Part shown: positions 1-51,140 of the stretch, piece after piece
How the letters are laid out: each line of letters opens with the position of its first letter
How positions within the stretch are numbered: the stretch's first letter is position 1
Source: Nemertoderma westbladi
Taxonomy: Eukaryota; Animalia; Xenacoelomorpha
Reading direction: 5' to 3'
DNA length: 51,238 bases
Assembly: GCA_032718475.1 (NCBI GenBank)
Contig: JAUCBJ010002312.1
Span: forward strand, 1 to 51,238
Notes under the pieces: generated by a model
What the model saw: only the letters and a program-made list of their open reading frames with translations
Told to the model about the DNA's origin: nothing
The model's database searches: none
Translations under genes and position numbers: made by a program

Positions 1-201
1 AACTAATGATATTAAGTAAAACTTACTAGTTAATGATATTAGGTAAAACTTACTCTACTAGTGAGATTATGTAAAACTTACACAACTAATGATATTAAGT
101 AAAACTTACTAGTTAATGATATTAGGTAAAACTTACTCTACTAGTGAGATTATGTAAAACTTACACAACTAATGATATTAAGTAAAACTTAACTATTAAT
201 G

Positions 202-316
202 CTGTTAATTATATATATAGTTACATTTGTGCTGTGTAGTTAGTTTCGTATTTGTAGTAGTATGGGTCATTAGTGCCCGAACCATGAAAGCTAAATAAAT
301 TAAAAAAAAAAAAAAA
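202..316 (+). mobile_element. ~115-bp poly(A)-tailed retroposon 3' fragment in the satellite (copy 1 of 8)
   Basis: Non-satellite sequence ending CTAAATAAAT plus an A-run, flanked by direct repeat TTAATG (TSD-like). Confidence 0.7.
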
Positions 317-2420
317 TTAATGATATTAAGTAAAACTTACCTTACTAGTTAGATTATGTAAAACTTACACTACTAATTATATTAAGTAAAACTTAACTAT
401 TAATGATATTAAGTAAAACTTACCTTACTAGTGAGATTATGTAAAACTTACACTACTAGTGAGATTATGTAAAACTTACACTACTAGTGAGATTATGTAA
501 AACTTACACTACTAATGATATTAAGTAAAACTTACACTACTAGTGAGATTATGTAAAACTTACACAACTAATGATATTAAGTAAAACTTAACTATTAATG
601 ATATTAAGTAAAACTTAACTATTAATGATATTAAGTAAAACTTACCTTACTAGTGAGATTATGTAAAACTTACACAACTAATGATATTAAGTAAAACTTA
701 ACTATTAATGATATTAAGTAAAACTTAACTATTAATGATATTAAGTAAAACTTAACTATTAATGATATTAAGTAAAACTTACCTTACTAGTGAGATTATG
801 TAAAACTTACTCTACTAGTGAGATTATGTAAAACTTACACTACTAATGATATTAAGTAAAACTTAACTATTAATGATATTAAGTAAAACTTACCTTACTA
901 ATGATATTAAGTAAAACTTAACTATTAATGATATTAAGTAAAACTTACCTTACTAGTGAGATTATGTAAAACTTACACTACTAATGATATTAAGTAAAAC
1001 TTAACTATTAATGATATTAAGTAAAACTTACCTTACTAGTGAGATTATGTAAAACTTACACAACTAATGATATTAAGTAAAACTTACACTACTATTGAGA
1101 TTATGTAAAACTTACACTACTAATGATATTATGTAAAACTTACACTACTAATGATATTAAGTAAAACTTAAACTACTAGTGAGATTATGTAAAACTTACA
1201 CTACTATTGAGATTATGTAAAACTTACACTACTAGTGAGATTATGTAAAACTTACACTACTATTGAGATTATGTAAAACTTACACTACTAGTGAGATTAA
1301 GTAAAACTTACACTACTAATGATATTAAGTAAAACTTACCTTACTAGTGAGATTATGTAAAACTTACACTTCTAATGATATTAAGTAAAACTTACACTAC
1401 TATTGAGATTATGTAAAACTTACACTACTAATGATATTATGTAAAACTTACACTACTAATGATATTAAGTAAAACTTACACTACTAGTGAGATTATGTAA
1501 AACTTACACTACTAATGATATTAAGTAAAACTTACCTTACTAGTGAGATTATGTAAAACTTACACTTCTAATGATATTAAGTAAAACTTACACTACTATT
1601 GAGATTATGTAAAACTTACACTACTAATGATATTATGTAAAACTTACACTACTAATGATATTAAGTAAAACTTACACTACTAGTGAGATTATGTAAAACT
1701 TACACTTCTAATGATATTAAGTAAAATTTACACTACTAGTGAGATTATGTAAAACTTACATTACTAATGATATTAAGTAAAACTGACACTACTAATGAAT
1801 GATATTAAGTAAAACTTACACTACTAATGATATTAAGTAAAACTTACACTACTAGTGAAATTATGTAAAACTTACACTACTAATGATATTAAGTAAAACT
1901 TACACTACTAGTGAGATTATGTAAAACTTACACTACTAGTGAGATTATGTAAAACTTACATTACTAATGATATTATTAAGTAAAACTGACACTACTAATG
2001 AATGATATTAAGTAAAACTTACACTACTAATGATATTAAGTACAACTTACACTACTAATGATATTAAGTAAAACTTACACTACTAATGATATTAAGTAAA
2101 ACTTACACTACTAGTGAGATTATGTAAAACATACACTACTAATGATATTAAGTAAAACTTACACTACTATTAAGTAAAACTTACAATACTATTAAGTAAA
2201 ACGTACACTACTATTAAGTAAAACTTAAACTACTAGTGAGAATATGTAAAACTTACACTACTATTAAGTAAAACTTACACTACTATTAAGTAAAAATTAC
2301 ATTACTAATGATATTAAGTAAAACTTACTAGTTAATGATATTAGGTAAAACTTACTCTACTAGTGAGATTATGTAAAACTTACACAACTAATGATATTAA
2401 GTAAAACTTAACTATTAATG

Positions 2421-2539
2421 CTGTTAATTATATATATAGTTACAATTGTGCTGTGTAGTTAGTTTCGTATTTGTAGTAGTATGGGTCATTAGTGCCCGAA
2501 CCATAAAAGCTAAATAAATAAAAAAAAAATAAAAAAAAA
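2421..2539 (+). mobile_element. Poly(A) retroposon fragment, copy 2 (variant B)
   Basis: Same insert with ACAATT and CCATAAAAG variants; same flanking context. Confidence 0.7.
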
Positions 2540-4439
2540 TTAATGATATTAAGTAAAACTTACCTTACTAGTTAGATTATGTAAAACTTGCACTACTAGT
2601 GAGATTAAGTAAAACTTAACTATTAATGATATTAAGTAAAACTTACCTTACTAGTGAGATTATGTAAAACTTACACAACTAATGATATTAAGTAAAACTT
2701 AACTATTAATGATATTAAGTAAAACTTACCTTACTAGTGAGATTATGTAAAACTTACACTACTAATGATATTAAGTAAAACTTAACTATTAATGATATTA
2801 AGTAAAACTTACCTTACTAGTGAGATTATGTAAAACTTACACTACTAATGATATTAAGTAAACTTACTCTACTATTGAGATTATGTAAAACTTACACTAC
2901 TAATGATATTAAGTAAAACTTACCTTACTAGTGAGATTATGTAAAACTTACACTTCTAATGATATTAAGTAAAACTTACACTACTATTGAGATTATGTAA
3001 AACTTACACTACTAATGATATTATGTAAAACTTACACTACTAATGATATTAAGTAAAACTTACACTACTAGTGAGATTATGTAAAACTTACACTACTAAT
3101 GATATTAAGTAAAACTTACCTTACTAGTGAGATTATGTAAAACTTACACTTCTAATGATATTAAGTAAAACTTACACTACTATTGAGATTATGTAAAACT
3201 TACACTACTAATGATATTATGTAAAACTTACACTACTAATGATATTAAGTAAAACTTACACTACTAGTGAGATTATGTAAAACTTACACTTCTAATGATA
3301 TTAAGTAAAACTTACACTACTAGTGAGATTATGTAAAACTTACATTACTAATGATATTAAGTAAAACTGACACTACTAATGAATGATATTAAGTAAAACT
3401 TACACTACTAATGATATTAAGTAAAACTTACACTACTAGTGAAATTATGTAAAACTTACACTACTAATGATATTAAGTAAAACTTACACTACTAGTGAGA
3501 TTATGTAAAACTTACATTACTAATGATATTATTAAGTAAAACTGACACTACTAATGAATGATATTAAGTAAAACTTACACTACTAATGAATGATATTAAG
3601 TAAAACTTACACTACTAATGATATTAAGTACAACTTACACTACTAATGATATTAAGTAAAACTTACACTACTAATGATATTAAGTAAAACTTACACTACT
3701 AGTGAGATTATGTAAAACTTACACTACTAATGATATTAAGTAAAACTTACACTACTAGTGAGATTATGTAAAACTTACACTACTAATGATATTAAGTAAA
3801 ACTTACACTACTAGTGAAATTATGTAAAACTTACACTACTAATGATATTAAGTAAAACTTACACTACTAGTGAGATTATGTAAAACTTACATTACTAATG
3901 ATATTATTAAGTAAAACTGACACTACTAATGAATGATATTAAGTAAAACTTACACTACTAATGAATGATATTAAGTAAAACTTACACTACTAATGATATT
4001 AAGTACAACTTACACTACTAATGATATTAAGTAAAACTTACACTACTAATGATATTAAGTAAAACTTACACTACTAGTGAGATTATGTAAAACTTACACT
4101 ACTAATGATATTAAGTAAAACTTACACTACTAGTGAGATTATGTAAAACTTACACTACTAATGATATTAAGTAAAACTTACACTACTATTAAGTAAAACT
4201 TACAATACTATTAAGTAAAACGTACACTACTATTAAGTAAAACTTAAACTACTAGTGAGAATATGTAAAACTTACACTACTATTAAGTACAACTTACACT
4301 ACTATTAAGTAAAAATTACATTACTAATGATATTAAGTAAAACTTACTAGTTAATGATATTAGGTAAAACTTACTCTACTAGTGAGATTATGTAAAACTT
4401 ACACAACTAATGATATTAAGTAAAACTTAACTATTAATG

Positions 4440-4554
4440 CTGTTAATTATATATATAGTTACATTTGTGCTGTGTAGTTAGTTTCGTATTTGTAGTAGTA
4501 TGGGTCATTAGTGCCCGAACCATGAAAGCTAAATAAATAAAAAAAAAAAAAAAA
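4440..4554 (+). mobile_element. Poly(A) retroposon fragment, copy 3
   Basis: Same insert and flanks as copy 1. Confidence 0.7.
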
Positions 4555-6652
4555 TTAATGATATTAAGTAAAACTTACCTTACTAGTTAGATTATGTAAA
4601 ACTTACACTACTAATTATATTAAGTAAAACTTAACTATTAATGATATTAAGTAAAACTTACCTTACTAGTGAGATTATGTAAAACTTACACTACTAGTGA
4701 GATTATGTAAAACTTACACTACTAGTGAGATTATGTAAAACTTACACTACTAATGATATTAAGTAAAACTTACACTACTAGTGAGATTATGTAAAACTTA
4801 CACAACTAATGATATTAAGTAAAACTTAACTATTAATGATATTAAGTAAAACTTAACTATTAATGATATTAAGTAAAACTTACCTTACTAGTGAGATTAT
4901 GTAAAACTTACACAACTAATGATATTAAGTAAAACTTAACTATTAATGATATTAAGTAAAACTTAACTATTAATGATATTAAGTAAAACTTAACTATTAA
5001 TGATATTAAGTAAAACTTACCTTACTAGTGAGATTATGTAAAACTTACTCTACTAGTGAGATTATGTAAAACTTACACTACTAATGATATTAAGTAAAAC
5101 TTAACTATTAATGATATTAAGTAAAACTTACCTTACTAATGATATTAAGTAAAACTTAACTATTAATGATATTAAGTAAAACTTACCTTACTAGTGAGAT
5201 TATGTAAAACTTACACTACTAATGATATTAAGTAAAACTTAACTATTAATGATATTAAGTAAAACTTACCTTACTAGTGAGATTATGTAAAACTTACACA
5301 ACTAATGATATTAAGTAAAACTTACACTACTATTGAGATTATGTAAAACTTACACTACTAATGATATTATGTAAAACTTACACTACTAATGATATTAAGT
5401 AAAACTTAAACTACTAGTGAGATTATGTAAAACTTACACTACTATTGAGATTATGTAAAACTTACACTACTAGTGAGATTATGTAAAACTTACACTACTA
5501 TTGAGATTATGTAAAACTTACACTACTAGTGAGATTAAGTAAAACTTACACTACTAATGATATTAAGTAAAACTTACCTTACTAGTGAGATTATGTAAAA
5601 CTTACACTTCTAATGATATTAAGTAAAACTTACACTACTATTGAGATTATGTAAAACTTACACTACTAATGATATTATGTAAAACTTACACTACTAATGA
5701 TATTAAGTAAAACTTACACTACTAGTGAGATTATGTAAAACTTACACTACTAATGATATTAAGTAAAACTTACCTTACTAGTGAGATTATGTAAAACTTA
5801 CACTTCTAATGATATTAAGTAAAACTTACACTACTATTGAGATTATGTAAAACTTACACTACTAATGATATTATGTAAAACTTACACTACTAATGATATT
5901 AAGTAAAACTTACACTACTAGTGAGATTATGTAAAACTTACACTTCTAATGATATTAAGTAAAATTTACACTACTAGTGAGATTATGTAAAACTTACATT
6001 ACTAATGATATTAAGTAAAACTGACACTACTAATGAATGATATTAAGTAAAACTTACACTACTAATGATATTAAGTAAAACTTACACTACTAGTGAAATT
6101 ATGTAAAACTTACACTACTAATGATATTAAGTAAAACTTACACTACTAGTGAGATTATGTAAAACTTACATTACTAATGATATTATTAAGTAAAACTGAC
6201 ACTACTAATGAATGATATTAAGTAAAACTTACACTACTAATGATATTAAGTACAACTTACACTACTAATGATATTAAGTAAAACTTACACTACTAATGAT
6301 ATTAAGTAAAACTTACACTACTAGTGAGATTATGTAAAACATACACTACTAATGATATTAAGTAAAACTTACACTACTATTAAGTAAAACTTACAATACT
6401 ATTAAGTAAAACGTACACTACTATTAAGTAAAACTTAAACTACTAGTGAGAATATGTAAAACTTACACTACTATTAAGTAAAACTTACACTACTATTAAG
6501 TAAAACTTACACTACTATTAAGTAAAAATTACATTACTAATGATATTAAGTAAAACTTACTAGTTAATGATATTAGGTAAAACTTACTCTACTAGTGAGA
6601 TTATGTAAAACTTACACAACTAATGATATTAAGTAAAACTTAACTATTAATG

Positions 6653-6772
6653 CTGTTAATTATATATATAGTTACATTTGTGCTGTGTAGTTAGTTTCGT
6701 ATTTGTAGTAGTATGGGTCATTAGTGCCCGAACCATGAAAGCTAAATAAATTAAAAAAAAAAAAAAAAAAAA
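6653..6772 (+). mobile_element. Poly(A) retroposon fragment, copy 4
   Basis: Same insert and flanks, longer A-run. Confidence 0.7.
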
Positions 6773-9700
6773 TTAATGATATTAAGTAAAACTTACCTTA
6801 CTAGTTAGATTATGTAAAACTTACACTACTAATGATATTAAGTAAAACTTAACTATTAATGATATTAAGTAAAACTTACTTTACTAGTGAGATTATGTAA
6901 AACTTACACAACTAATGATATTAAGTAAAACTTAACTATTAATGATATTAAGTAAAACTTACCTTACTAGTGAGATTATGTAAAACTTACACAACTAATG
7001 ATATTAAGTAAAACTTAACTATTAATGATATTAAGTAAAACTTAACTATTAATGATATTAAGTAAAACTTAACTATTAATGATATTAAGTAAAACTTACC
7101 TTACTAGTGAGATTATGTAAAACTTACTCTACTAGTGAGATTATGTAAAACTTACACTACTAATGATATTAAGTAAAACTTAACTATTAATGATATTAAG
7201 TAAAACTTACCTTACTAATGATATTAAGTAAAACTTAACTATTAATGATATTAAGTAAAACTTACCTTACTAGTGAGATTATGTAAAACTTACACTACTA
7301 ATGATATTAAGTAAAACTTAAACTACTAGTGAGATTATGTAAAACTTACACTACTATTGAGATTATGTAAAACTTACACTACTAGTGAGATTATGTAAAA
7401 CTTACACTACTATTGAGATTATGTAAAACTTACACTACTAGTGAGATTAAGTAAAACTTACACTACTAATGATATTAAGTAAAACTTACACTACTAGTGA
7501 GATTATGTAAAACTTGCACTACTAATGATATTAAGTAAAACTTACACTACTAGTGAGATTATGTAAAACTTACACTACTATTGAGATTATGTAAAACTTA
7601 CACTACTAATTATATTAAGTAAAACTTACACTACTAATGATATTAAGTAAAACTTAAACTACTAGTGAGATTATGTAAAACTTACACTACTAATGAGATT
7701 ATGTAAAACTTACACTACTAGTGAGATTATGTAAAACTTACACTACTATTGAGATTATGTAAAACTTACACTACTAGTGAGATTAAGTAAAACTTACACT
7801 ACTAATGATATTAAGTAAAACTTACACTACTAGTGAGATTATGTAAAACTTGCACTACTAATGATATTAAGTAAAACTTACACTACTAATGATATTAAGT
7901 AAAACTTAAACTACTAGTGAGATTATGTAAAACTTACACTACTAGTGAGATTATGTAAAACTTACACTACTAATTATATTAAGTAAAACTTACACTACTA
8001 ATGATATTAAGTAAAACTTAAACTACTAGTGAGATTATGTAAAACTTACACTACTAGTGAGATTATGTAAAACTTGCACTACTAATGATATTAAATAAAA
8101 CTTACCTTACTAGTGAGATTATGTAAAACTTACACTACTATTGAGATTATGTAAAACTTACACTACTAGTGAGATTAAGTAAAACTTAAACTACTATTGA
8201 GATTATGTAAAACTTACACTACTAGTGAGATTATGTAAAACTTACACTACTAATGATATTAAGTAAAACTTAAACTACTAGTGAGATTATGTAAAACTTG
8301 CACTACTAATGATATTAAATAAAACTTACCTTACTAGTGAGATTATGTAAAACTTACACTACTATTGAGATTATGTAAAACTTACACTACTAGTGAGATT
8401 AAGTAAAACTTACACTACTAATTATATTAAGTAAAACTTACACTACTAATGATATTAAGTAAAACTTAAACTACTAGTGAGATTATGTAAAACTTACACT
8501 ACTAGTGAGATTATGTAAAACTTACACTACTAATTATATTAAGTAAAACTTAAACTACTAGTGAGATTATGTAAAACTTACACTACTAGTGAGATTATGT
8601 AAAACTTACACTACTAATGATATTAAGTACAACTTACACTACTAGTGAGATTATGTAAAACTTACACTACTAGTGAGATTATGTAAAACTTACACTACTA
8701 GTGAGATTATGTAAAACTTGCACTACTAATGATATTAAATAAAACTTACCTTACTAGTGAGATTTTGTAAAACTTACACTACTATTGAGATTATGTAAAA
8801 CTTACACTACTAGTGAGATTAAGTAAAACTTACACTACTAATTATATTAAGTAAAACTTACACTACTAATGATATTAAGTAAAACTTAAACTACTAGTGA
8901 GATTATGTAAAACTTACACTACTAGTGAGATTATGTAAAACTTACACTACTAATTATATTAAGTAAAACTTACACTACTAATGATATTAAGTAAAACTTA
9001 AACTACTAGTGAGATTATGTAAAACTTACACTACTAGTGAGATTATGTAAAACTTGCACTACTAATGATATTAAATAAAACTTACCTTACTAGTGAGATT
9101 ATGTAAAACTTACACTACTATTGAGATTATGTAAAACTTACACTACTATTGAGATTATGTAAAACTTACACTACTAATTATATTAAGTAAAACTTACACT
9201 ACTAATGATATTAAGTAAAACTTAAACTACTAGTGAGATTATGTAAAACTTACACTACTAGTGAGATTATGTAAAACTTGCACTACTAATGATATTAAAT
9301 AAAACTTACCTTACTAGTGAGATTATGTAAAACTTACACTACTATTGAGATTATGTAAAACTTACACTACTAGTGAGATTAAGTAAAACTTACACTACTA
9401 ATGATATTAAGTAAAACTTACACTACTAGTGAGATTATGTAAAACTTGCACTACTAATGATATTAAGTAAAACTTACACTACTAATGATATTAAGTAAAA
9501 CTTAAACTACTAGTGAGATTATGTAAAACTTACACTACTAGTGAGATTATGTAAAACTTGCACTACTAATGATATTAAATAAAACTTACCTTACTAGTGA
9601 GATTATGTAAAACTTACACTACTATTGAGATTATGTAAAACTTACACTACTATTGAGATTATGTAAAACTTACACTACTAGTGAGATTAAGTAAAACTTA

Positions 9701-11242
9701 CACTACTAATGATATTAAGTAAAACTTACACTACTAGTGAGATTATGTAAAACTTGCACTACTAATGATATTAAGTAAAACTTACACTACTAGTGAAATT
9801 ATGTAAAACTTACACTACTAATTATATTAAGTAAAACTTACACTACTAATGATATTAAGTAAAACTTAAACTACTAGTGAGATTATGTAAAACTTACACT
9901 ACTAGTGAGATTATGTAAAACTTGCACTACTAATGATATTAAATAAAACTTACCTTACTAGTGAGATTATGTAAAACTTACACTACTATTGAGATTATGT
10001 AAAACTTACACTACTAGTGAGATTAAGTAAAACTTACACTACTAATGATATTAAGTAAAACTTACACTACTAGTGAAATTATGTAAAACTTACACTACTA
10101 ATGATATTAAGTAAAACTTACACTACTAGTGAGATTATGTAAAACTTACATTACTAATGATATTATTAAGTAAAACTGACACTACTAATGAATGATATTA
10201 AGTAAAACTTACACTACTAATGATATTAAGTACAACTTACACTACTAATGATATTAAGTAAAACTTACACTACTAATGATATTAAGTAAAACTTACACTA
10301 CTAGTGAGATTATGTAAAACATACACTACTAATGATATTAAGTAAAACTTACACTGCTAGTGAGATTATGTAAAACTTACACGACTAATGATATTAAGTA
10401 AAACTTACACTACTATTAAGTAAAACTTACAATACTATTAAGTAAAACGTACACTACTATTAAGTAAAACTTAAACTACTAGTGAGAATATGTAAAACTT
10501 ACACTACTATTAAGTAAAACTTACACTACTATTAAGTAAAAATTACATTACTAATGATATTAAGTAAAACTTACTAGTTAATGATATTAGGTAAAACTTA
10601 CTCTACTAGTGAGATTATGTAAAACATACACTACTAATGATATTAAGTAAAACTTACACTACTATTAAGTAAAACTTACACTACTAGTGAGATTATGTAA
10701 AACTTACACTTCTAATGATATTAAGTAAAACTTACACTACTATTAAGTAAAACTTACAATACTATTAAGTAAAACGTACACTACTATTAAGTAAAACTTA
10801 AACTACTAGTGAGAATATGTAAAACTTACACTACTATTAAGTAAAACTTACACTACTATTAAGTAAAAATTACATTACTAATGATATTAAGTAAAACTTA
10901 CTAGTTAATGATATTAGGTAAAACTTACTCTACTAGTGAGATTATGTAAAACATACACTACTAATGATATTAAGTAAAACTTACACTACTATTAAGTAAA
11001 ACTTACAATACTATTAAGTAAAACGTACACTACTATTAAGTAAAACTTAAACTACTAGTGAGAATATGTAAAACTTACACTACTATTAAGTAAAACTTAC
11101 ACTACTATTAAGTAAAAATTACATTACTAATGATATTAAGTAAAACTTACTAGTTAATGATATTAGGTAAAACTTACTCTACTAGTGAGATTATGTAAAA
11201 CTTACACAACTAATGATATTAAGTAAAACTTAACTATTAATG

Positions 11243-11362
11243 CTGTTAATTATATATATAGTTACATTTGTGCTGTGTAGTTAGTTTCGTATTTGTAGTA
11301 GTATGGGTCATTAGTGCCCGAACCATGAAAGCTAAATAAATAAAAAAAAAAAAAAAAAAAAA
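11243..11362 (+). mobile_element. Poly(A) retroposon fragment, copy 5
   Basis: Same insert and flanks. Confidence 0.7.
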
Positions 11363-12815
11363 TTAATGATATTAAGTAAAACTTACCTTACTAGTTAGAT
11401 TATGTAAAACTTACACAACTAATGATATTAAGTAAAACTTACACTACTAGTGAGATTATGTAAAACTTACACAACTAATGATATTAAGTAAAACTTAACT
11501 ATTAATGATATTAAGTAAAACTTACCTTACTAGTGAGATTATGTAAAACTTACACAACTAATGATATTAAGTAAAACTTAACTATTAATGATATTAAGTA
11601 AAACTTAACTATTAATGATATTAAGTAAAACTTACACTACTAGTGAGATTATGTAAAACTTACACAACTAATGATATTAAGTAAAACTTAACTATTAATG
11701 ATATTAAGTAAAACTTACTTTACTAGTGAGATTATGTAAAACTTACACAACTAATGATATTAAGTAAAACTTAACTATTAATGATATTAAGTAAAACTTA
11801 CCTTACTAGTGAGATTATGTAAAACTTACACAACTAATGATATTAAGTAAAACTTAACTATTAATGATATTAAGTAAAACTTAACTATTAATGATATTAA
11901 GTAAAACTTAACTATTAATGATATTAAGTAAAACTTACCTTACTAGTGAGATTATGTAAAACTTACACTACTAGTGAGATTATGTAAAACTTGCACTACT
12001 AATGATATTAAATAAAACTTACCTTACTAGTGAGATTATGTAAAACTTACACTACTATTGAGATTATGTAAAACTTACACTACTAGTGAGATTAAGTAAA
12101 ACTTACACTACTAATGATATTAAGTAAAACTTACACTACTAGTGAAATTATGTAAAACTTACACTACTAATGATATTAAGTAAAACTTACACTACTAGTG
12201 AGATTATGTAAAACTTACATTACTAATGATATTATTAAGTAAAACTGACACTACTAATGAATGATATTAAGTAAAACTTACACTACTAATGATATTAAGT
12301 ACAACTTACACTACTAATGATATTAAGTAAAACTTACACTACTAATGATATTAAGTAAAACTTACACTACTAGTGAGATTATGTAAAACATACACTACTA
12401 ATGATATTAAGTAAAACTTACACTACTAGTGAGATTATGTAAAACTTACACTACTAATGATATTAAGTAAAACTTACACTACTATTAAGTAAAACTTACA
12501 ATACTATTAAGTAAAACGTACACTACTATTAAGTAAAACTTAAACTACTAGTGAGAATATGTAAAACTTACACTACTATTAAGTAAAACTTACACTACTA
12601 TTAAGTAAAAATTACATTACTAATGATATTAAGTAAAACTTACTAGTTAATGATATTAGGTAAAACTTACTCTACTAGTGAGATTATGTAAAACATACAC
12701 TACTAATGATATTAAGTAAAACTTACACTACTATTAAGTAAAACTTACACTACTAGTGAGATTATGTAAAACTTACACTTCTAATGATATTAAGTAAAAC
12801 TTACACTACTATTAA

Positions 12816-13760
12816 CCCTTTCGGTACCATGGCACATACGTCTGTTCCATGGGTATTGCGCCATGACACACACGTCTGTTCCATGACATTTATTTGATTT
12901 CTAAGAAGGGAAAATGTTGCTGGACTATTAAGTACATGCTTCCATATGTTAGCGACGCATTTCAGCTTGTATCTACTGTAAATTAACTACCGGTAGGCCT
13001 ACTGCAGACCTGCTTACAGACTGCCAGACTTTAGCAATAACAGAATAAGGCAGTACTGCAGTAAGGTAGGCCTAAACTGACTAAACAGCCTAAACAAAAA
13101 AGCCTAAACAGACTGACCGACAGACAGTCTGGATAGGGTCAAAAGTGAAAACTGACAGCGGAAATGAAATCCTTGACCAGGAAAACCCCCATAGAGCGAA
13201 TTTTAATTAGCTAATGTGATTCCTTATATTTTTGACGGACAGACAGACTGACAGACAGACCGACAGCCAGTCTGGATAGGGTCAAAAGTGAAAACTGACA
13301 GCGGAAATGAAATCCTTGACCAGGAAAACCCCCATAGAGAGAATCTTAATTAGCTAATGTGATTCCTTATATTTTCGACGGACAGACTGACAGACAGACA
13401 GACAGACCAACAGACCGACAGACAGTCTGCATAGGGTCCAAAGTGAAAACTGACAGCGGAAATGAAATCCTTGACCAGGAAAACCCCCATAGTGAGAATT
13501 TTAATTAGCTAATGTGATTCCTTATACTTTTGACGGACAGACAGACCGACAGACAGTCTGGATACGGTCAAAAGTGAAAACTGACAGCGGAAATGAAATC
13601 CTTGACAGGGAAAACCCCCATAGCGAGAATCTTAGTAGATTTTATTCTATCTAAAGTCTTGACAGACAAACTGACAGAAATACTGACAGACTTCAGAAAT
13701 TCATGAATTAGAGTTGGGCACTTGGGGGTTTGAATAATTTCCAGTTAGGTACCGAAAGGG
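12816..13760. mobile_element. Non-autonomous piggyBac-type DNA transposon (MITE), 945 bp
   Basis: Perfect 13-bp TIR CCCTTTCGGTACC / GGTACCGAAAGGG; TTAA duplicated at 12812-12815 and 13761-13764; no ORF in the supplied track. Confidence 0.9.
13105..13640. repeat. Four ~130-155 bp internal tandem repeats separated by (GACA/GACC)n microsatellite, inside the piggyBac-type MITE
   Basis: Near-identical GTCTGGATAGGGTCAAAAGTGAAAACTGACAGCGG... motif at ~13127, 13270, 13425 and 13556. Confidence 0.9.
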
Positions 13761-14294
13761 TTAAGTAAAACTTACACTATTATTAAGTAAAACTTAAACT
13801 ACTAGTGAGAATATGTAAAACTTACACTACTATTAAGTAAAACTTACACTACTATTAAGTAAAAATTACATTACTAATGATATTAAGTAAAACTTACTAG
13901 TTAATGATATTAGGTAAAACTTACTCTACTAGTGAGATTATGTAAAACATACACTACTAATGATATTAAGTAAAACTTACACTACTATTAAGTAAAACTT
14001 ACACTACTAGTGAGATTATGTAAAACTTACACTACTAATGATATTAAGTAAAACTTACACTACTATTAAGTAAAACGTACACTACTATTAAGTAAAACTT
14101 AAACTACTAGTGAGAATATGTAAAACTTACACTACTATTAAGTAAAACTTACACTACTATTAAGTAAAAATTACATTACTAATGATATTAAGTAAAACTT
14201 ACTAGTTAATGATATTAGGTAAAACTTACTCTACTAGTGAGATTATGTAAAACTTACACAACTAATGATATTAAGTAAAACTTAACTATTAATG

Positions 14295-14416
14295 CTGTTA
14301 ATTATATATATAGTTACATTTGTGCTGTGTAGTTAGTTTCGTATTTGTAGTAGTATGGGTCATTAGTGCCCGAACCATGAAAGCTAAATAAATAAAAAAA
14401 AAAAAAAAAAAAAAAA
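14295..14416 (+). mobile_element. Poly(A) retroposon fragment, copy 6
   Basis: Same insert and flanks. Confidence 0.7.
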
Positions 14417-17400
14417 TTAATGATATTAAGTAAAACTTACCTTACTAGTTAGATTATGTAAAACTTACACTACTAATGATATTAAGTAAAACTTAACTAT
14501 TAATGATATTAAGTAAAACTTACTTTACTAGTGAGATTATGTAAAACTTACACAACTAATGATATTAAGTAAAACTTAACTATTAATGATATTAAGTAAA
14601 ACTTACCTTACTAGTGAGATTATGTAAAACTTACACAACTAATGATATTAAGTAAAACTTAACTATTAATGATATTAAGTAAAACTTAACTATTAATGAT
14701 ATTAAGTAAAACTTAACTATTAATGATATTAAGTAAAACTTACCTTACTAATGATATTAAGTAAAACTTAACTATTAATGATATTAAGTAAAACTTACCT
14801 TACTAGTGAGATTATGTAAAACTTACACTACTAATGATATTAAGTAAAACTTAACTATTAATGATATTAAGTAAAACTTACCTTACTAGTGAGATTATGT
14901 AAAACTTACACTACTAATGATATTAAGTAAAACTTAAACTACTAGTGAGATTATGTAAAACTTACACTACTATTGAGATTATGTAAAACTTACACTACTA
15001 GTGAGATTATGTAAAACTTACACTACTATTGAGATTATGTAAAACTTACACTACTAGTGAGATTAAGTAAAACTTACACTACTAATGATATTAAGTAAAA
15101 CTTACACTACTAGTGAGATTATGTAAAACTTGCACTACTAATGATATTAAGTAAAACTTACACTACTAGTGAGATTATGTAAAACTTACACTACTATTGA
15201 GATTATGTAAAACTTACACTACTAATTATATTAAGTAAAACTTACACTACTAATGATATTAAGTAAAACTTAAACTACTAGTGAGATTATGTAAAACTTA
15301 CACTACTATTGAGATTATGTAAAACTTACACTACTAGTGAGATTATGTAAAACTTACACTACTATTGAGATTATGTAAAACTTACGCGACTAGTGAGATT
15401 AAGTAAAACTTACACTACTAATGATATTAAGTAAAACTTACACTACTAGTGAGATTATGTAAAACTTGCACTACTAATGATATTAAGTAAAACTTACACT
15501 ACTAATGATATTAAGTAAAACTTAAACTACTAGTGAGATTATGTAAAACTTACACTACTAGTGAGATTATGTAAAACTTACACTACTAATTATATTAAGT
15601 AAAACTTACACTACTAATGATATTAAGTAAAACTTAAACTACTAGTGAGATTATGTAAAACTTACACTACTAGTGAGATTATGTAAAACTTGCACTACTA
15701 ATGATATTAAATAAAACTTACCTTACTAGTGAGATTATGTAAAACTTACACTACTATTGAGATTATGTAAAACTTACACTACTAGTGAGATTAAGTAAAA
15801 CTTAAACTACTAGTGAGATTATGTAAAACTTACACTACGAGTGAGATTATGTAAAACTTACACTACTAATTATATTAAGTAAAACTTACACTACTAATGA
15901 TATTAAGTAAAACTTAAACTACTAGTGAGATTATGTAAAACTTGCACTACTAATGATATTAAATAAAACTTACCTTACTAGTGAGATTATGTAAAACTTA
16001 CACTACTATTGAGATTATGTAAAACTTACACTACTAGTGAGATTAAGTAAAACTTACACTACTAATTATATTAAGTAAAACTTACACTACTAATGATATT
16101 AAGTAAAACTTAAACTACTAGTGAGATTATGTAAAACTTACACTACTAGTGAGATTATGTAAAACTTACACTACTAATTATATTAAGTAAAACTTAAACT
16201 ACTAGTGAGATTATGTAAAACTTACACTACTAGTGAGATTATGTAAAACTTACACTACTAATGATATTAAGTACAACTTACACTACTAGTGAGATTATGT
16301 AAAACTTACACTACTAATTATATTAAGTAAAACTTACACTACTAATGATATTAAGTAAAACTTAAACTACTAGTGAGATTATGTAAAACTTACACTACTA
16401 GTGAGATTATGTAAAACTTACACTACTAGTGAGATTATGTAAAACTTGCACTACTAATGATATTAAATAAAACTTACCTTACTAGTGAGATTTTGTAAAA
16501 CTTACACTACTATTGAGATTATGTAAAACTTACACTACTAGTGAGATTAAGTAAAACTTACACTACTAATTATATTAAGTAAAACTTACACTACTAATGA
16601 TATTAAGTAAAACTTAAACTACTAGTGAGATTATGTAAAACTTACACTACTAGTGAGATTATGTAAAACTTACACTACTAATTATATTAAGTAAAACTTA
16701 CACTACTAATGATATTAAGTAAAACTTAAACTACTAGTGAGATTATGTAAAACTTACACTACTAGTGAGATTATGTAAAACTTGCACTACTAATGATATT
16801 AAATAAAACTTACCTTACTAGTGAGATTATGTAAAACTTACACTACTATTGAGATTATGTAAAACTTACACTACTAGTGAGATTAAGTAAAACTTACACT
16901 ACTAATGATATTAAGTAAAACTTACACTACTAGTGAGATTATGTAAAACTTGCACTACTAATGATATTAAGTAAAACTTACACTACTAATGATATTAAGT
17001 AAAACTTAAACTACTAGTGAGATTATGTAAAACTTACACTACTAGTGAGATTATGTAAAACTTGCACTACTAATGATATTAAATAAAACTTACCTTACTA
17101 GTGAGATTATGTAAAACTTACACTACTATTGAGATTATGTAAAACTTACACTACTATTGAGATTATGTAAAACTTACACTACTAGTGAGATTAAGTAAAA
17201 CTTACACTACTAATGATATTAAGTAAAACTTACACTACTAGTGAGATTATGTAAAACTTGCACTACTAATGATATTAAGTAAAACTTACACTACTAGTGA
17301 AATTATGTAAAACTTACACTACTAATTATATTAAGTAAAACTTACACTACTAATGATATTAAGTAAAACTTAAACTACTAGTGAGATTATGTAAAACTTA

Positions 17401-20400
17401 CACTACTAGTGAGATTATGTAAAACTTGCACTACTAATGATATTAAATAAAACTTACCTTACTAGTGAGATTATGTAAAACTTACACTACTATTGAGATT
17501 ATGTAAAACTTACACTACTAGTGAGATTAAGTAAAACTTACACTACTAATGATATTAAGTAAAACTTACACTACTAGTGAGATTATGTAAAACTTGCACT
17601 ACTAATGATATTAAGTAAAACTTACACTACTAATGATATTAAGTAAAACTTAAACTACTAGTGAGATTATGTAAAACTTACACTACTAGTGAGATTATGT
17701 AAAACTTGCACTACTAATGATATTAAATAAAACTTACCTTACTAGTGAGATTATGTAAAACTTACACTACTATTGAGATTATGTAAAACTTACACTACTA
17801 TTGAGATTATGTAAAACTTACACTACTAGTGAGATTAAGTAAAACTTACACTACTAATGATATTAAGTAAAACTTACACTACTAGTGAGATTATGTAAAA
17901 CTTGCACTACTAATGATATTAAGTAAAACTTACACTACTAGTGAAATTATGTAAAACTTACACTACTAATGATATTAAGTAAAACTTACACTACTAATGA
18001 TATTAAGTAAAACTTAAACTACTAGTGAGATTATGTAAAACTTACACTACTAGTGAGATTATGTAAAACTTGCACTACTAATGATATTAAATAAAACTTA
18101 CCTTACTAGTGAGATTATGTAAAACTTACACTACTAGTGAGATTATGTAAAACTTGCACTACTAATAATATTAAATAAAACTTACCTTACTAGTGAGATT
18201 ATGTAAAACTTACACTACTCTACTATTGAGATTATGTAAAACTTACACTACTAGTGAGATTAAGTAAAACTTACACTTCTAATGATATTAAGTAAAACTA
18301 ACACAACTAATGATATTAAGTAAAACTTAACTATTAATGATATTAAGTAAAACTTACCTTACTAGTGAGATTATGTAAAACTTACACTACTATTGAGATT
18401 ATGTAAAACTTACACTACTAGTGAGATTATGTAAAACTTACACTACTAGTGAGATTATGTAAAACTTACACTACTAATGATATTAAATAAAACTTACTCT
18501 ACTAGTGAGATTATGTAAAACTTACACTACTAATGATATTAAGTACAACTTACACTACTAGTGAGATTATGTAAAACTTACACTACTAATGATATTAAAT
18601 AAAACTTAAACTACTAGTGAGATTATGTAAAACTTACTCTACTAGTGAGATTATGTAAAACTTACTCTACTAGTGAGATTATGTAAAACTTACACTACTA
18701 ATGATATTAAGTAAAACTTACACTACTAGTGAGATTATGTAAAACTTGCACTACTAATGATATTAAGTAAAACTTACACTACTAGTGAGATTATGTAAAA
18801 CTTACACTTCTAATGATATTAAGTAAAACTTACACTACCAATGATATTAGTAAAACTTACACTACTAATGATATTAAGTAAAACTTACACTACTAATGAA
18901 TGATATTAAGTAAAACTTACACTACTAATGATATTAAGTAAAACTTACACAACTAATGATATTAAGTAAAACTTACACTACTAATGATATTAAGTAAAAC
19001 TTACACTACTAGTGAGATTATGTAAAACTTACACTTCTAATGATATTAAGTAAAACTTACACTACCAATGATATTAGTAAAACTTACACTACTAATGATA
19101 TTAAGTAAAACTTACACTACTAATGAATGATATTAAGTAAAACTTACACTACTAATGATATTAAGTAAAACTTACACAACTAATGATATTAAGTAAAACT
19201 TACACTACTAATGATATTAAGTAAAACTTACACTACTAATGAATGATATTAAGTACAACTTACACTACTAACGATATTAAGTAAAACTTACACTACTAGT
19301 GAGATTATGTAAAACTTACACTACTAATGATATTAAGTAAAACTTACACTACTAGTGAGATTAAGTAAAACTTACACTTCTAATGATATTAAGTAAAACT
19401 TACACTACCAATGATATTAGTAAAACTTACACTACTAATGATATTAAGTAAAACGTACACTACTAATGAATGATATTAAGTAAAACTTACACTACTAATG
19501 ATATTAAGTAAAACTTACACAACTAATGATATTAAGTAAAACTTACACTACTAATGATATTAAGTAAAACTTACACTACTAATGAATGATATTAAGTAAA
19601 ACTTACACTACTAACGATATTAAGTAAAACTTACACTACTAGTGAGATTATGTAAAACTTACACTACTAATGATATTAAGTAAAACTTACACTACTAGTG
19701 AGATTATGTAAAACTTACACTTCTAATGATATTAAGTAAAACTTACACTACTAGTGAGATTATGTAAAACTTACACTTCTAATGATATTAAGTAAAATTT
19801 ACACTACTAGTGAGATTATGTAAAACTTACACTACTAATTATATTAAGTAAAACTTAACTATTAATGATATTAAGTAAAACTTACCTTACTAGTGAGATT
19901 ATGTAAAACTTACACTACTAGTGAGATTATGTAAAACTTACACTACTAGTGAGATTATGTAAAACTTACACTACTAATGATATTAAGTAAAACTTACACT
20001 ACTAGTGAGATTATGTAAAACTTACACAACTAATGATATTAAGTAAAACTTAACTATTAATGATATTAAGTAAAACTTAACTATTAATGATATTAAGTAA
20101 AACTTACCTTACTAGTGAGATTATGTAAAACTTACACAACTAATGATATTAAGTAAAACTTAACTATTAATGATATTAAGTAAAACTTAACTATTAATGA
20201 TATTAAGTAAAACTTAACTATTAATGATATTAAGTAAAACTTACCTTACTAGTGAGATTATGTAAAACTTACTCTACTAGTGAGATTATGTAAAACTTAC
20301 ACTACTAATGATATTAAGTAAAACTTAACTATTAATGATATTAAGTAAAACTTACCTTACTAATGATATTAAGTAAAACTTAACTATTAATGATATTAAG

Positions 20401-21831
20401 TAAAACTTACCTTACTAGTGAGATTATGTAAAACTTACACTACTAATGATATTAAGTAAAACTTAACTATTAATGATATTAAGTAAAACTTACCTTACTA
20501 GTGAGATTATGTAAAACTTACACAACTAATGATATTAAGTAAAACTTACACTACTATTGAGATTATGTAAAACTTACACTACTAATGATATTATGTAAAA
20601 CTTACACTACTAATGATATTAAGTAAAACTTAAACTACTAGTGAGATTATGTAAAACTTACACTACTATTGAGATTATGTAAAACTTACACTACTAGTGA
20701 GATTATGTAAAACTTACACTACTATTGAGATTATGTAAAACTTACACTACTAGTGAGATTAAGTAAAACTTACACTACTAATGATATTAAGTAAAACTTA
20801 CCTTACTAGTGAGATTATGTAAAACTTACACTTCTAATGATATTAAGTAAAACTTACACTACTATTGAGATTATGTAAAACTTACACTACTAATGATATT
20901 ATGTAAAACTTACACTACTAATGATATTAAGTAAAACTTACACTACTAGTGAGATTATGTAAAACTTACACTACTAATGATATTAAGTAAAACTTACCTT
21001 ACTAGTGAGATTATGTAAAACTTACACTTCTAATGATATTAAGTAAAACTTACACTACTATTGAGATTATGTAAAACTTACACTACTAATGATATTATGT
21101 AAAACTTACACTACTAATGATATTAAGTAAAACTTACACTACTAGTGAGATTATGTAAAACTTACACTTCTAATGATATTAAGTAAAATTTACACTACTA
21201 GTGAGATTATGTAAAACTTACATTACTAATGATATTAAGTAAAACTGACACTACTAATGAATGATATTAAGTAAAACTTACACTACTAATGATATTAAGT
21301 AAAACTTACACTACTAGTGAAATTATGTAAAACTTACACTACTAATGATATTAAGTAAAACTTACACTACTAGTGAGATTATGTAAAACTTACACTACTA
21401 GTGAGATTATGTAAAACTTACATTACTAATGACACTACTAATGATATTAAGTACAACTTACACTACTAATGATATTAAGTAAAACTTACACTACTAATGA
21501 TATTAAGTAAAACTTACACTACTAGTGAGATTATGTAAAACATACACTACTAATGATATTAAGTAAAACTTACACTACTATTAAGTAAAACTTACAATAC
21601 TATTAAGTAAAACGTACACTACTATTAAGTAAAACTTAAACTACTAGTGAGAATATGTAAAACTTACACTACTATTAAGTAAAACTTACACTACTATTAA
21701 GTAAAAATTACATTACTAATGATATTAAGTAAAACTTACTAGTTAATGATATTAGGTAAAACTTACTCTACTAGTGAGATTATGTAAAACTTACACAACT
21801 AATGATATTAAGTAAAACTTAACTATTAATG

Positions 21832-21951
21832 CTGTTAATTATATATATAGTTACAATTGTGCTGTGTAGTTAGTTTCGTATTTGTAGTAGTATGGGTCAT
21901 TAGTGCCCGAACCATAAAAGCTAAATAAATAAAAAAAAAAAAAAAAAAAAA
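21832..21951 (+). mobile_element. Poly(A) retroposon fragment, copy 7 (variant B)
   Basis: Shares the two diagnostic variants with copy 2. Confidence 0.7.
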
Positions 21952-23594
21952 TTAATGATATTAAGTAAAACTTACCTTACTAGTTAGATTATGTAAAACT
22001 TGCACTACTAGTGAGATTAAGTAAAACTTAACTATTAATGATATTAAGTAAAACTTACCTTACTAGTGAGATTATGTAAAACTTACACAACTAATGATAT
22101 TAAGTAAAACTTAACTATTAATGATATTAAGTAAAACTTACCTTACTAGTGAGATTATGTAAAACTTACACTACTAATGATATTAAGTAAAACTTAACTA
22201 TTAATGATATTAAGTAAAACTTACCTTACTAGTGAGATTATGTAAAACTTACACTACTAATGATATTAAGTAAACTTACTCTACTATTGAGATTATGTAA
22301 AACTTACACTACTAATGATATTAAGTAAAACTTACCTTACTAGTGAGATTATGTAAAACTTACACTTCTAATGATATTAAGTAAAACTTACACTACTATT
22401 GAGATTATGTAAAACTTACACTACTAATGATATTATGTAAAACTTACACTACTAATGATATTAAGTAAAACTTACACTACTAGTGAGATTATGTAAAACT
22501 TACACTACTAATGATATTAAGTAAAACTTACCTTACTAGTGAGATTATGTAAAACTTACACTTCTAATGATATTAAGTAAAACTTACACTACTATTGAGA
22601 TTATGTAAAACTTACACTACTAATGATATTATGTAAAACTTACACTACTAATGATATTAAGTAAAACTTACACTACTAGTGAGATTATGTAAAACTTACA
22701 CTTCTAATGATATTAAGTAAAACTTACACTACTAGTGAGATTATGTAAAACTTACATTACTAATGATATTAAGTAAAACTGACACTACTAATGAATGATA
22801 TTAAGTAAAACTTACACTACTAATGATATTAAGTAAAACTTACACTACTAGTGAAATTATGTAAAACTTACACTACTAATGATATTAAGTAAAACTTACA
22901 CTACTAGTGAGATTATGTAAAACTTACATTACTAATGATATTATTAAGTAAAACTGACACTACTAATGAATGATATTAAGTAAAACTTACACTACTAATG
23001 AATGATATTAAGTAAAACTTACACTACTAATGATATTAAGTACAACTTACACTACTAATGATATTAAGTAAAACTTACACTACTAATGATATTAAGTAAA
23101 ACTTACACTACTAGTGAGATTATGTAAAACTTACACTACTAATGATATTAAGTAAAACTTACACTACTAGTGAGATTATGTAAAACTTACACTACTAATG
23201 ATATTAAGTAAAACTTACACTACTAGTGAGATTATGTAAAACTTACACTACTAATGATATTAAGTAAAACTTACACTACTAGTGAGATTATGTAAAACTT
23301 ACACTACTAATGATATTAAGTAAAACTTACACTACTATTAAGTAAAACTTAAACTACTAGTGAGAATATGTAAAACTTACACTACTATTAAGTAAAACTT
23401 AAACTACTAGTGAGAATATGTAAAACTTACACTACTATTAAGTACAACTTACACTACTATTAAGTAAAAATTACATTACTAATGATATTAAGTAAAACTT
23501 ACTAGTTAATGATATTAGGTAAAACTTACTCTACTAGTAAGATTATGTAAAACTTACACAACTAATGATATTAAGTAAAACTTAACTATTAATG

Positions 23595-23709
23595 CTGTTA
23601 ATTATATATATAGTTACATTTGTGCTGTGTAGTTAGTTTCGTATTTGTAGTAGTATGGGTCATTAGTGCCCGAACCATGAAAGCTAAATAAATAAAAAAA
23701 AAAAAAAAA
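23595..23709 (+). mobile_element. Poly(A) retroposon fragment, copy 8
   Basis: Same insert and flanks. Confidence 0.7.
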
Positions 23710-24620
23710 TTAATGATATTAAGTAAAACTTACCTTACTAGTTAGATTATGTAAAACTTACACTACTAATTATATTAAGTAAAACTTAACTATTAATGAT
23801 ATTAAGTAAAACTTACCTTACTAGTGAGATTATGTAAAACTTACACTACTAGTGAGATTATGTAAAACTTACACTACTAGTGAGATTATGTAAAACTTAC
23901 ACTACTAATGATATTAAGTAAAACTTACACTACTAGTGAGATTATGTAAAACTTACACAACTAATGATATTAAGTAAAACTTAACTATTAATGATATTAA
24001 GTAAAACTTAACTATTAATGATATTAAGTAAAACTTACCTTACTAGTGAGATTATGTAAAACTTACACAACTAATGATATTAAGTAAAACTTAACTATTA
24101 ATGATATTAAGTAAAACTTAACTATTAATGATATTAAGTAAAACTTAACTATTAATGATATTAAGTAAAACTTACCTTACTAGTGAGATTATGTAAAACT
24201 TACTCTACTAGTGAGATTATGTAAAACTTACACTACTAATGATATTAAGTAAAACTTAACTATTAATGATATTAAGTAAAACTTACCTTACTAATGATAT
24301 TAAGTAAAACTTAACTATTAATGATATTAAGTAAAACTTACCTTACTAGTGAGATTATGTAAAACTTACACTACTAATGATATTAAGTAAAACTTAACTA
24401 TTAATGATATTAAGTAAAACTTACCTTACTAGTGAGATTATGTAAAACTTACACAACTAATGATATTAAGTAAAACTTACACTACTATTGAGATTATGTA
24501 AAACTTACACTACTAATGATATTATGTAAAACTTACACTACTAATGATATTAAGTAAAACTTACCTTACTAGTGAGATTATGTAAAACTTACACTTCTAA
24601 TGATATTAAGTAAAACTTAC

Positions 24621-24814
24621 ACTACTAGTGAGATTAAGAACAACCAGCTGTTTTCCCCGTATCTGAATCTGTAGTTTATCGTTACCGCCCATGTTTAGGA
24701 GATCATGAATAGTTTCGTTGTAAACTTCCATTAGGGAGGCTTTCAACGTGTACTTCATCTTTTCTCGATCGTTACAAACGCCAAACAACTCCTTAATAGC
24801 GCGAATGTTGACGC
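24621..24814 (-). CDS. Kinesin exon (motor: GVNIRAIKELF...MEVYNETIHDLL...VLNLTSS)
   Basis: ttaaag acceptor, gtaagt donor, 194 bp, phases 1/0. Confidence 0.93.
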
Positions 24815-50205: not shown

Positions 50206-51066
50206 TGGGGCGCCGTTTGGGCCAAAAATAAAAAAAACATATTATATTAAAAAGTTATAATGGTATGTTTTTTATCTTGCCGTTTGGGCCAAAAGTTGTA
50301 ATGGTATGTTTTTTTATCTTGCCGTTTGGGCCAAAAATAGCTGAGAGGGAAATTTGAATTATCACTTTCTATATACTGTATTTAGCAATTGCAATTATCA
50401 TCATACCTGTGAGCCTGTCTGCCTATACATGATTGTGGATTGTATTTACACACGGTGTACCGTATCGCTGTAGGAGTGGACTTTAGGCTTACCTCCCGCT
50501 GTATGGCTGTATGGGCCTTGGCCTACCAGTACTCATATACTGTCACTGGGTAATGCTGTAATGCGTTAGGCTGTTAGGTACAAATCAGTATACTTTAGGC
50601 CCTGTAGCATTACACCTTGTGCTTGTGATAGGCCTACATCTTGTGGTCCACAATACTGAGGCATTAATGTCAGAATGTCATTTGTACCTAACAGCCTAAC
50701 GCTACATTACAGCATATACCCAGTGACAGTATATGAGTACTGGTAGGCCAAGGCCCATACAGCCATACAGCGGGAGGTAAGCCTAAAGTCCACTCCTACA
50801 GCGATACGGTACACCGTGTGTAAATACAATCCACAATCATGTATAGGCAGACAGGCTCACAGGTATGATGATAATTGCAATTGCTATAAATACAGTATAT
50901 AGAAAGTGATAATTCAAATTTCCCTCTCAGCTATTTTTGGCCCAAACGGCAAGATAAAAAAACATACCATTACAACTTTTGGCCCAAACGGCAAGATAAA
51001 AAAACATACCATTATAACTTTTTAATATAATATGTTTTTTTTATTTTTGGCCCAAACGGCGCCCCA
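50206..51066. mobile_element. Long palindromic MITE (861 bp) with TA target duplication, Tc1/mariner-type signature
   Basis: ~380-bp near-perfect inverted arms TGGGGCGCCGTTTGGGCC...GGCCCAAACGGCGCCCCA with a ~95-bp spacer; TA at 50204-50205 and 51067-51068. Confidence 0.9.
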
Positions 51067-51140
51067 TATGCGGTCTTCTGGCTTCATCGAATTCAGGGCT
51101 TAAAGAAGATAAAGGCAAATATAAATTTACTAGATCCTAC

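Follow-up and report, generated by a model that had tools for sequence, protein, structure and literature searches.

A 28-bp splice-donor repeat of about 820 units in a kinesin-14 intron of Nemertoderma westbladi

Minisatellites that span an exon-intron boundary are known from human and amphioxus genes. In intron 7 of human F7, a 37-bp variable number tandem repeat of 5-9 copies occupies about 300 bp, and the mutagenesis described in PMC1557585 shows the most upstream donor to win, even against sites that match U1 better (consensus value up to 91%). The part of that paper dealing with other donor minisatellites lists 25 pseudo-sites in intron 2 of 6-16 (IFI6), 15-20 in intron 13 of CBS, 10-15 copies in LMNB2 and 16-18 in PDGF. 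In amphioxus, minisatellites called "mirages" occur in Adh3, TnC, the globin genes BflGb6 and BflGb9, and PGBD5, and the accounts in PMC3087553 and PMC3902484 report them without disturbance of splicing. Here we describe an array of this type in Nemertoderma westbladi (Xenacoelomorpha). The window, by which we mean the whole analysed stretch of 51,238 nt (contig JAUCBJ010002312.1 of assembly GCA_032718475.1), carries on its minus strand part of a kinesin-14 gene, one intron of which is filled with 28-bp units copied from the junction between a motor exon and its 5' splice site. We consider it probable that the array is a splice-donor minisatellite which expanded in place, likely has no function, and leaves the first copy as the donor in use.

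The locus shares with the mirages a head-to-tail unit spanning the exon-intron boundary, an outermost unit that holds the true splice site, a splice signal kept by most units (GT in 672 of 819) and, as judged from the contigs of one run, regular splicing. With 6-16, CBS, LMNB2 and PDGF it shares a donor reiterated in the following intron, there 10-25 times according to PMC1557585. What separates it from these cases is size and internal organization. BflGb6 has 3-6 copies (PMC3087553, PMC3902484) and the kinesin array about 820, roughly 30-fold more than the four human repeats (PMC1557585); it also contains higher-order blocks and inserted mobile elements, unlike the amphioxus mirages as those papers describe them. 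Length instability is a demonstrated feature of the mirages (PMC3087553, PMC3902484, in the parts concerned with it).

Tandem Repeats Finder reports a single array of period 28 at positions 1-24638, amounting to 886.6 periods, a figure that counts inserts too. Parsing of the same interval gave 819 anchored units, most of them 28 nt long (642), the others mainly 27 nt (81), 22 nt (55) or 31-32 nt (27); 14 intervals are irregular or interrupted. Identity with the seed junction is found in 23 units, the true junction counted in, while 109 differ from it at one position, 256 at two and 211 at three. A 14-mer taken from the unit occurs 282 times against a chance expectation of 0.01, and the unit core, with one mismatch allowed, has no occurrence in 24639-51238. 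The hexamer GTAAGT is present 627 times on the minus (sense) strand of 1-24638, including the true donor. The first-pass annotation of this DNA had proposed a 28-bp array of at least 24.6 kb, built from the kinesin exon/donor junction and placing several hundred GTAAGT donors in the intron, and both statements hold. It had also let the array start at the exon boundary. The array is indeed built from the junction, but it begins 18 nt inside the exon, at 24638; the proposed division into 16 exon and 12 intron bases is circularly the same unit, and we place the seed as 18 plus 10.

The reality of the array was assessed by short-read contigs of four sequencing runs, X1-X4, X1 and X2 coming from one sample. 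In X3, a single-copy contig adjoining the array (depth 43.2) served as the reference for ratios. Among the exact-match repeat records listed, depth relative to single-copy depth was 51.7, 31.4 and 17.4 where the window holds 53.3, 32.9 and 19.0 copies of the corresponding 31-mers, and the junction between the array and a poly(A)-tailed insert gave 8.4 against a window count of 7.1; over these four records the depth-to-window ratios range from 0.91 to 1.19. The values for X1 (0.62-0.69 of window counts, three records) and X2 (0.29-0.55, two records) are lower; as both runs stem from one sample, bias between libraries is of the same size as this difference. The size of the array in X3 agrees roughly with the assembly, with perhaps one additional block, and depth puts it at about 25-30 kb. 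The same depth, although an indirect measure, argues against a large pool of array units at other loci.

The array might be an artefact of assembly, or the allele private and damaged, and these data bear on both possibilities. Exact internal matches of up to 1631 bp could stem from mis-joined reads; the window also breaks off within the array, whose internal order is that given by the assembly. On the other hand, the four X3 ratios, including that of the insert junction, agree with the assembled counts, and array contigs are present in three samples, one of which carries the array and is correctly spliced. A damaged allele, one of the options left by the first-pass annotation, is unlikely for this last reason; an artefact and a dispersal of the 28-mer over many unrelated loci, both named there as grounds for abandoning its interpretation, are opposed by the X3 depth. 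We give artefact and private allele together almost no weight.

The exon end that matches the unit is old. Among 97 homologues, the leucine encoded by the seed is kept in 87 and the threonine in 79, and the spacing from the seed residues to the RSH motif is identical in 96. This conservation marks the exon end as old coding sequence, older than the repeat, so that the repeat would derive from the exon end and not the reverse. With the RSH spacing equal in 96 of the 97 homologues, the kinesin motor would tolerate no insertion at the seed position. An alternative is that an older satellite family inserted at the exon end or grew into it, the exon match being secondary or coincidental. The units themselves lend it something, as most are 1-3 positions off the junction and 23 of 819 are exact. 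However, the residues encoded by the 18 shared bases are conserved in animals and in a choanoflagellate, the X3 depth leaves little room for further loci, and the 53 X3 records contain a single long unique flank other than the exon. We regard this origin as highly improbable.

Evidence on donor use comes from run X4. It is recorded as 'DNA?', but three GT-AG introns are missing from its contigs, and we therefore treat it as RNA. Contig 26 of this run (1245 nt, depth 293) covers the motor exon as far as 24620, after which it enters sequence absent from the window; the continuation is in frame for ten visible codons and, by eye, aligns gaplessly with homologues. Position 24620 is the donor of the major product. 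No X4 contig exits at the decoy donor nearest to the exon (24592) or at the one at 24564, where rare forms may have been lost in the contigs; as contigs drop rare forms, the X4 evidence concerns the major product only. Depth at 24646-24698 is that of contig 26 alone, so no contig reading from the exon into the intron was retained. X4 covers no part of 25653-26100, and such gaps prove nothing.

Transcripts that read past the first donor would encode VSFT and then terminate, the stop codon lying at 24608-24606, upstream of the decoy at 24592. Because the stop at codon 5 lies ahead of the first decoy, any use of a decoy gives a premature stop. The decoys include 78 units with AAG/GTAAGT (the slash marks the exon-intron boundary), each reached via a two-base change from the seed; they match the U1 consensus at 9 of 11 positions, the true donor at 7 of 11. 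The first-pass annotation had predicted most of this: the donor at 24620, the read-through peptide ending within five codons and the superior match of the AAG/GTAAGT variant are borne out, and its claim that the first donor alone preserves the motor frame is supported by the position of the stop and by the in-frame X4 contig. Of the options it offered, a strict choice of the first donor agrees with the data.

The silence of the decoys would come neither from weaker sequence, given the 78 better U1 matches, nor, as far as prediction goes, from structure. In folding predictions the true donor has an unpaired probability of 0.04 against a mean of 0.22 for 60 decoys; nine other donors of the kinesin gene range from 0.30 to 0.67. 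Masking of the decoys by RNA structure was rejected, since the decoys are predicted to be less paired than the true donor and pairing would therefore not explain the choice. During synthesis, the true donor is predicted to be roughly half unpaired up to some 12 bases of intron, its unpaired probability falling from 0.5 to 0.05-0.2 once at least 30 are present. Donor choice would thus be explained by position and timing. The F7 repeat offers the closest parallel, for there, too, the first unit carries the true donor, identical pseudo-donors follow and the first alone is used, although the F7 unit includes 4 exon bases and the kinesin unit 18, and the F7 pseudo-sites have been proven usable by mutation while the kinesin decoys are candidate donors (compared with the relevant parts of PMC1557585). 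If the F7 experiments are a guide, the most upstream donor beside a defined exon would be taken during transcription, with neither strength nor RNA structure deciding. Any rare decoy products, ending at codon 5, would be degraded through nonsense-mediated decay (NMD), at a small cost that would let the array be tolerated.

We next consider whether the array is maintained by selection. GT is lost in 147 of the 819 units, by G to T at +1 in 117 and T to C at +2 in 30. Among the 642 full units, G at +1 is kept in 86.6% and T at +2 in 95.3%, and eight exon-derived columns are kept at 99.7% or more; positions +3 to +10 are excluded from this comparison as biased by the anchor, and unit copies are not independent events. 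GT-killing variants have spread, which speaks against selection on the decoy donors. This bears on the idea that selection keeps the array as a loading platform for the U1 small nuclear ribonucleoprotein, protecting or speeding transcription of a long intron. U1 protects long nascent transcripts, and there are 627 GTAAGT sites on the sense strand. Yet it is the array itself that makes the intron long, the GT-killing variants have spread beyond most other changes, and unrelated, donor-less arrays occupy the other introns of the gene. Such a platform is very unlikely; with no decoy junction recovered, neither it nor an NMD-coupled control of expression, the other function raised in the first-pass annotation, finds support.

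A milder alternative is that an accidental array now dampens expression, by slow intron removal or by leakage into decoys with ensuing nuclear retention or NMD, so that its length tunes the kinesin. Every decoy sits behind the codon-5 stop, the U1 match of 78 exceeds that of the true donor, and the latter is predicted to pair up as the intron grows, all of which would suit leakage. X4 moreover contains array sequence, each copy at about 1.3% of the depth of the exon, and PMC1557585 states for human 6-16 and CBS that the two nearest pseudo-sites are also used. No such use was seen in the X4 contigs, however, and no X4 contig contains a decoy junction or read-through; the per-copy level is equal for a proximal unit type and for one with its nearest copy about 520 nt into the array, and the loss of GT in 147 units also speaks against it. 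So even a level is better explained by unspliced RNA or carried-over DNA than by splicing from the near decoys. On balance dampening seems unlikely. The same holds, marginally more so, for its strongest form, a functional dial in which about 820 copies delay intron removal or leak regulated transcripts into stop-bearing forms, length setting the level of kinesin-14. Were this true, the spread of AAG/GTAAGT and of dead TTAAGT units would be the record of a tug of war over the leak, and the output of a kinesin-14 motor would be set heritably by repeat length.

Several points weigh against our preferred interpretation of a tolerated, functionless array. The RNA evidence consists of one run in assembled contigs, in which decoy use of a few percent would be missed, and decoy use in other tissues, or in products removed by NMD, would escape it as well. 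Array sequence does occur in X4, with 3.68 and 3.80 depth per window copy for the two unit types. Gain of a better U1 match by 78 units is something neutrality permits and does not predict. The scanning mechanism has been demonstrated in mammalian cells and with 5-9 copies only. As for copy number, X1-X3 may be the window's own source, contig depth is a rough measure, and the X1 and X2 ratios fall below the window counts.

The array is not pure. It contains eight copies of a poly(A)-tailed insert, sitting in a repeating context and flanked by a 6-bp target duplication, and exact internal matches recur at offsets of 4-19 kb, revealing higher-order blocks. The insert is likely the 3' end of a retrotransposon, and its eight copies likely represent one insertion multiplied through block duplication. 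An X3 contig bridges array and insert at 23595; X1, X2 and X4 have no bridging contig there, gaps which prove nothing, and X2 does have an end leading from poly(A) into the array. Contigs of X1 and X2 show the insert with other flanks, and it likely belongs to a family dispersed elsewhere in the genome. A single 953-bp element with terminal inverted repeats, present once in the array, is non-coding; its ends we take to be piggyBac-like.

Expansion in place would have begun when short direct repeats at a distance of 28 bases gave rise to a first duplication, and unequal exchange of ever larger blocks would then have multiplied the retro-insert to eight copies, the DNA-transposon-like element presumably arriving late. 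A comparable process is treated in PMC13167724, where, in the part dealing with microhomology-mediated tandem duplication, segments between direct repeats of 4-25 bp duplicate and expand, mostly neutrally; that work concerns low copy states, unlike the approximately 820 units found here. A possible trace of the first step is provided by one of the 53 X3 records, which leads out of array units into unique sequence of at least 255 letters. Over the 30 letters compared, the last donor on the sense strand is followed by sequence that agrees with the exon end in 9 of 14 positions, and a TCTCACT lies exactly one period from the TCTCACT of the exon (chance about 8e-5 at a set offset), a 7-bp match of the type expected from microhomology (PMC13167724). 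Should the flank represent the far end, it is either the seeding direct repeat or a worn last unit, and either fits birth in place. To the points listed above it must be added that the comparison covers only 30 letters of this flank, which is a candidate for the far end. A random 28-nt seed holds a donor about 1.4% of the time, which gives an expectation of 0.14 for the ten other arrays of the gene; at such a rate, donor-straddling arrays should be common genome-wide.

The first-pass annotation implied more novelty than there is, as the arrangement is in print (PMC1557585, PMC3087553, PMC3902484, in the portions considered here). It is not the kind that is new; what stands out is the layered structure and the number of units, about 820 where the cases in these papers reach 25 at most, and the array is likely a harmless, very large example of a known repeat type. 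We found no printed donor repeat of this size in a search that lacked most subscription journals, and supplements to the mirage papers may hold larger counts. Giant introns of the Drosophila Y chromosome (kl-3, kl-5) are similar in consisting mostly of transcribed tandem repeat, but they hold megabases of simple satellites that are not junction-derived and are served by dedicated RNA-binding proteins, as far as PMC6508621 treats them; the kinesin array, at 25-30 kb by depth, is far below that range. The locus amounts to a natural stress test of 5' splice site choice, in which more than 600 donors, 78 of them with better U1 matches, come after the true one and the first wins in the recovered transcript, where the published cases of competing donors cited above involve 5-25 copies. 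It also displays the growth of an array at a single locus from a known seed, via block duplication and insertion of mobile elements.

As far as its sequence tells, the host gene is a kinesin-14 of the KIFC3/klp-3-like type. It has a C-terminal motor after a coiled coil and, like its animal orthologues, an N-terminal block and a CUE domain, and tblastn with six homologues places the N-terminal, CUE and motor exons in the expected order. The Pfam families Kinesin and Microtub_bd were matched on three minus-strand exons, with the CUE domain upstream; the exon that donated the repeat corresponds to positions 103-167 of 327 of the Kinesin model. Four motor-side exons join into one open frame of 216 residues, the best matches of which (57-61%) are from lancelet, snail, coelacanth and sea urchin, with 60% identity to Branchiostoma over 211 amino acids; the P-loop exon finds animal and choanoflagellate homologues at about 70-80%. 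Introns neighbouring the array-bearing one measure about 110-130 bases. A search for a hidden exon inside the array found none, motifs of the later motor part being absent from its six frames, and the remaining motor exons are located left of the window, as had been suggested from the first inspection. Searched by itself, the array-adjoining exon gave 11 candidates, of which none reached E 0.001. Scanning metagenomes for orthologous loci yielded 80 distant kinesins (31-58% identity over short stretches); the start of the exon following the array had no exact match in metagenome contigs, and the array unit had none in viral contigs. Coordinates of all features are collected in Table 1.

Table 1. 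Features of the window, with positions on the 51,238-nt stretch
Feature	Position	Strand	Remarks
28-bp tandem array of the exon/donor junction	1..24638	minus	about 820 units; runs off left window edge
Seed unit: last 18 exon bases (codons L-N-L-T-S-S) and first 10 intron bases	24611..24638	minus
True 5' splice site AGT/GTAAGT	24615..24620	minus	intron begins at 24620; X4 contig exits here into next exon
In-frame TAA, codon 5 of intron	24606..24608	minus	ahead of all decoys
First of 78 AAG/GTAAGT decoys	24559..24567	minus	donor at 24564; no X4 contig exits here
Poly(A)-tailed insert, TTAATG target duplication	23595..23709	plus	one of 8 array copies
Other poly(A)-insert copies	near 200, 2420, 4440, 6650, 11240, 14290, 21830
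953-bp insert with terminal inverted repeats	12812..13764	not assigned	single; TTAA at both ends; internal 143-bp repeat
Kinesin-14 (KIFC3/klp-3-like) gene, part within window	24621..46522	minus	tblastn of 6 homologues
Motor exon donating the repeat	24621..24814	minus	Pfam PF00225, E 1.5e-9; X4 spliced contig; splice ends
P-loop motor exon	24927..25110	minus	Pfam, homologues, X4 contigs, splice ends
Short motor exon	25244..25316	minus	X4 contigs, splice ends
Coiled-coil/neck and start of motor exon	25431..25627	minus	Pfam, X4 contigs, splice ends
Other kinesin-14 exon ends	46377, 43564, 38740 (CUE domain), 38025, 35321, 31482	minus	tblastn
Nine further intronic arrays (21-87-bp units)	26147-27176, 27986-28127, 28255-28687, 30162-30722, 31677-33697, 35633-36109, 39476-41464, 44572-45006, 47316-50052

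Outside the donor array, ten other arrays with unrelated units of 21-87 bp fill 38% of 24639-51238, which indicates that the gene is prone to array growth. The tenth, absent from Table 1, is a 25-bp array of about 15 units at 38913-39279, its end lying 13 bases short of the acceptor at 38899. Its units carry a T-rich stretch ending in TAG/G, acceptor-like and loosely resembling the real acceptor region, and it is possibly an acceptor-side counterpart of the donor array. Reading it instead as a donor-derived array behind a 30-nt micro-exon was rejected, both because that reading contains a stop and because homologues join the exon ending at 43564 straight to the exon starting at 38899.

One of the ten arrays, that of 87-bp units, grows from the end of an intronic fragment resembling a long interspersed nuclear element (LINE). 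This fragment, at 36108-37070, consists of a 321-codon frame with a weak match to the endonuclease/exonuclease/phosphatase family (E 3.6e-5) and runs directly into the array. Mirrored tblastn matches and repeat rows reveal a long inverted pair at 50210-50530 and 50700-51070 with 42-bp internal repeats, which looks like a foldback element or one of the miniature inverted-repeat transposable element type. In the intron after the exon ending at 35321, an apparent inverted repeat with arms of about 250 bp is visible by eye at 34580-35170.

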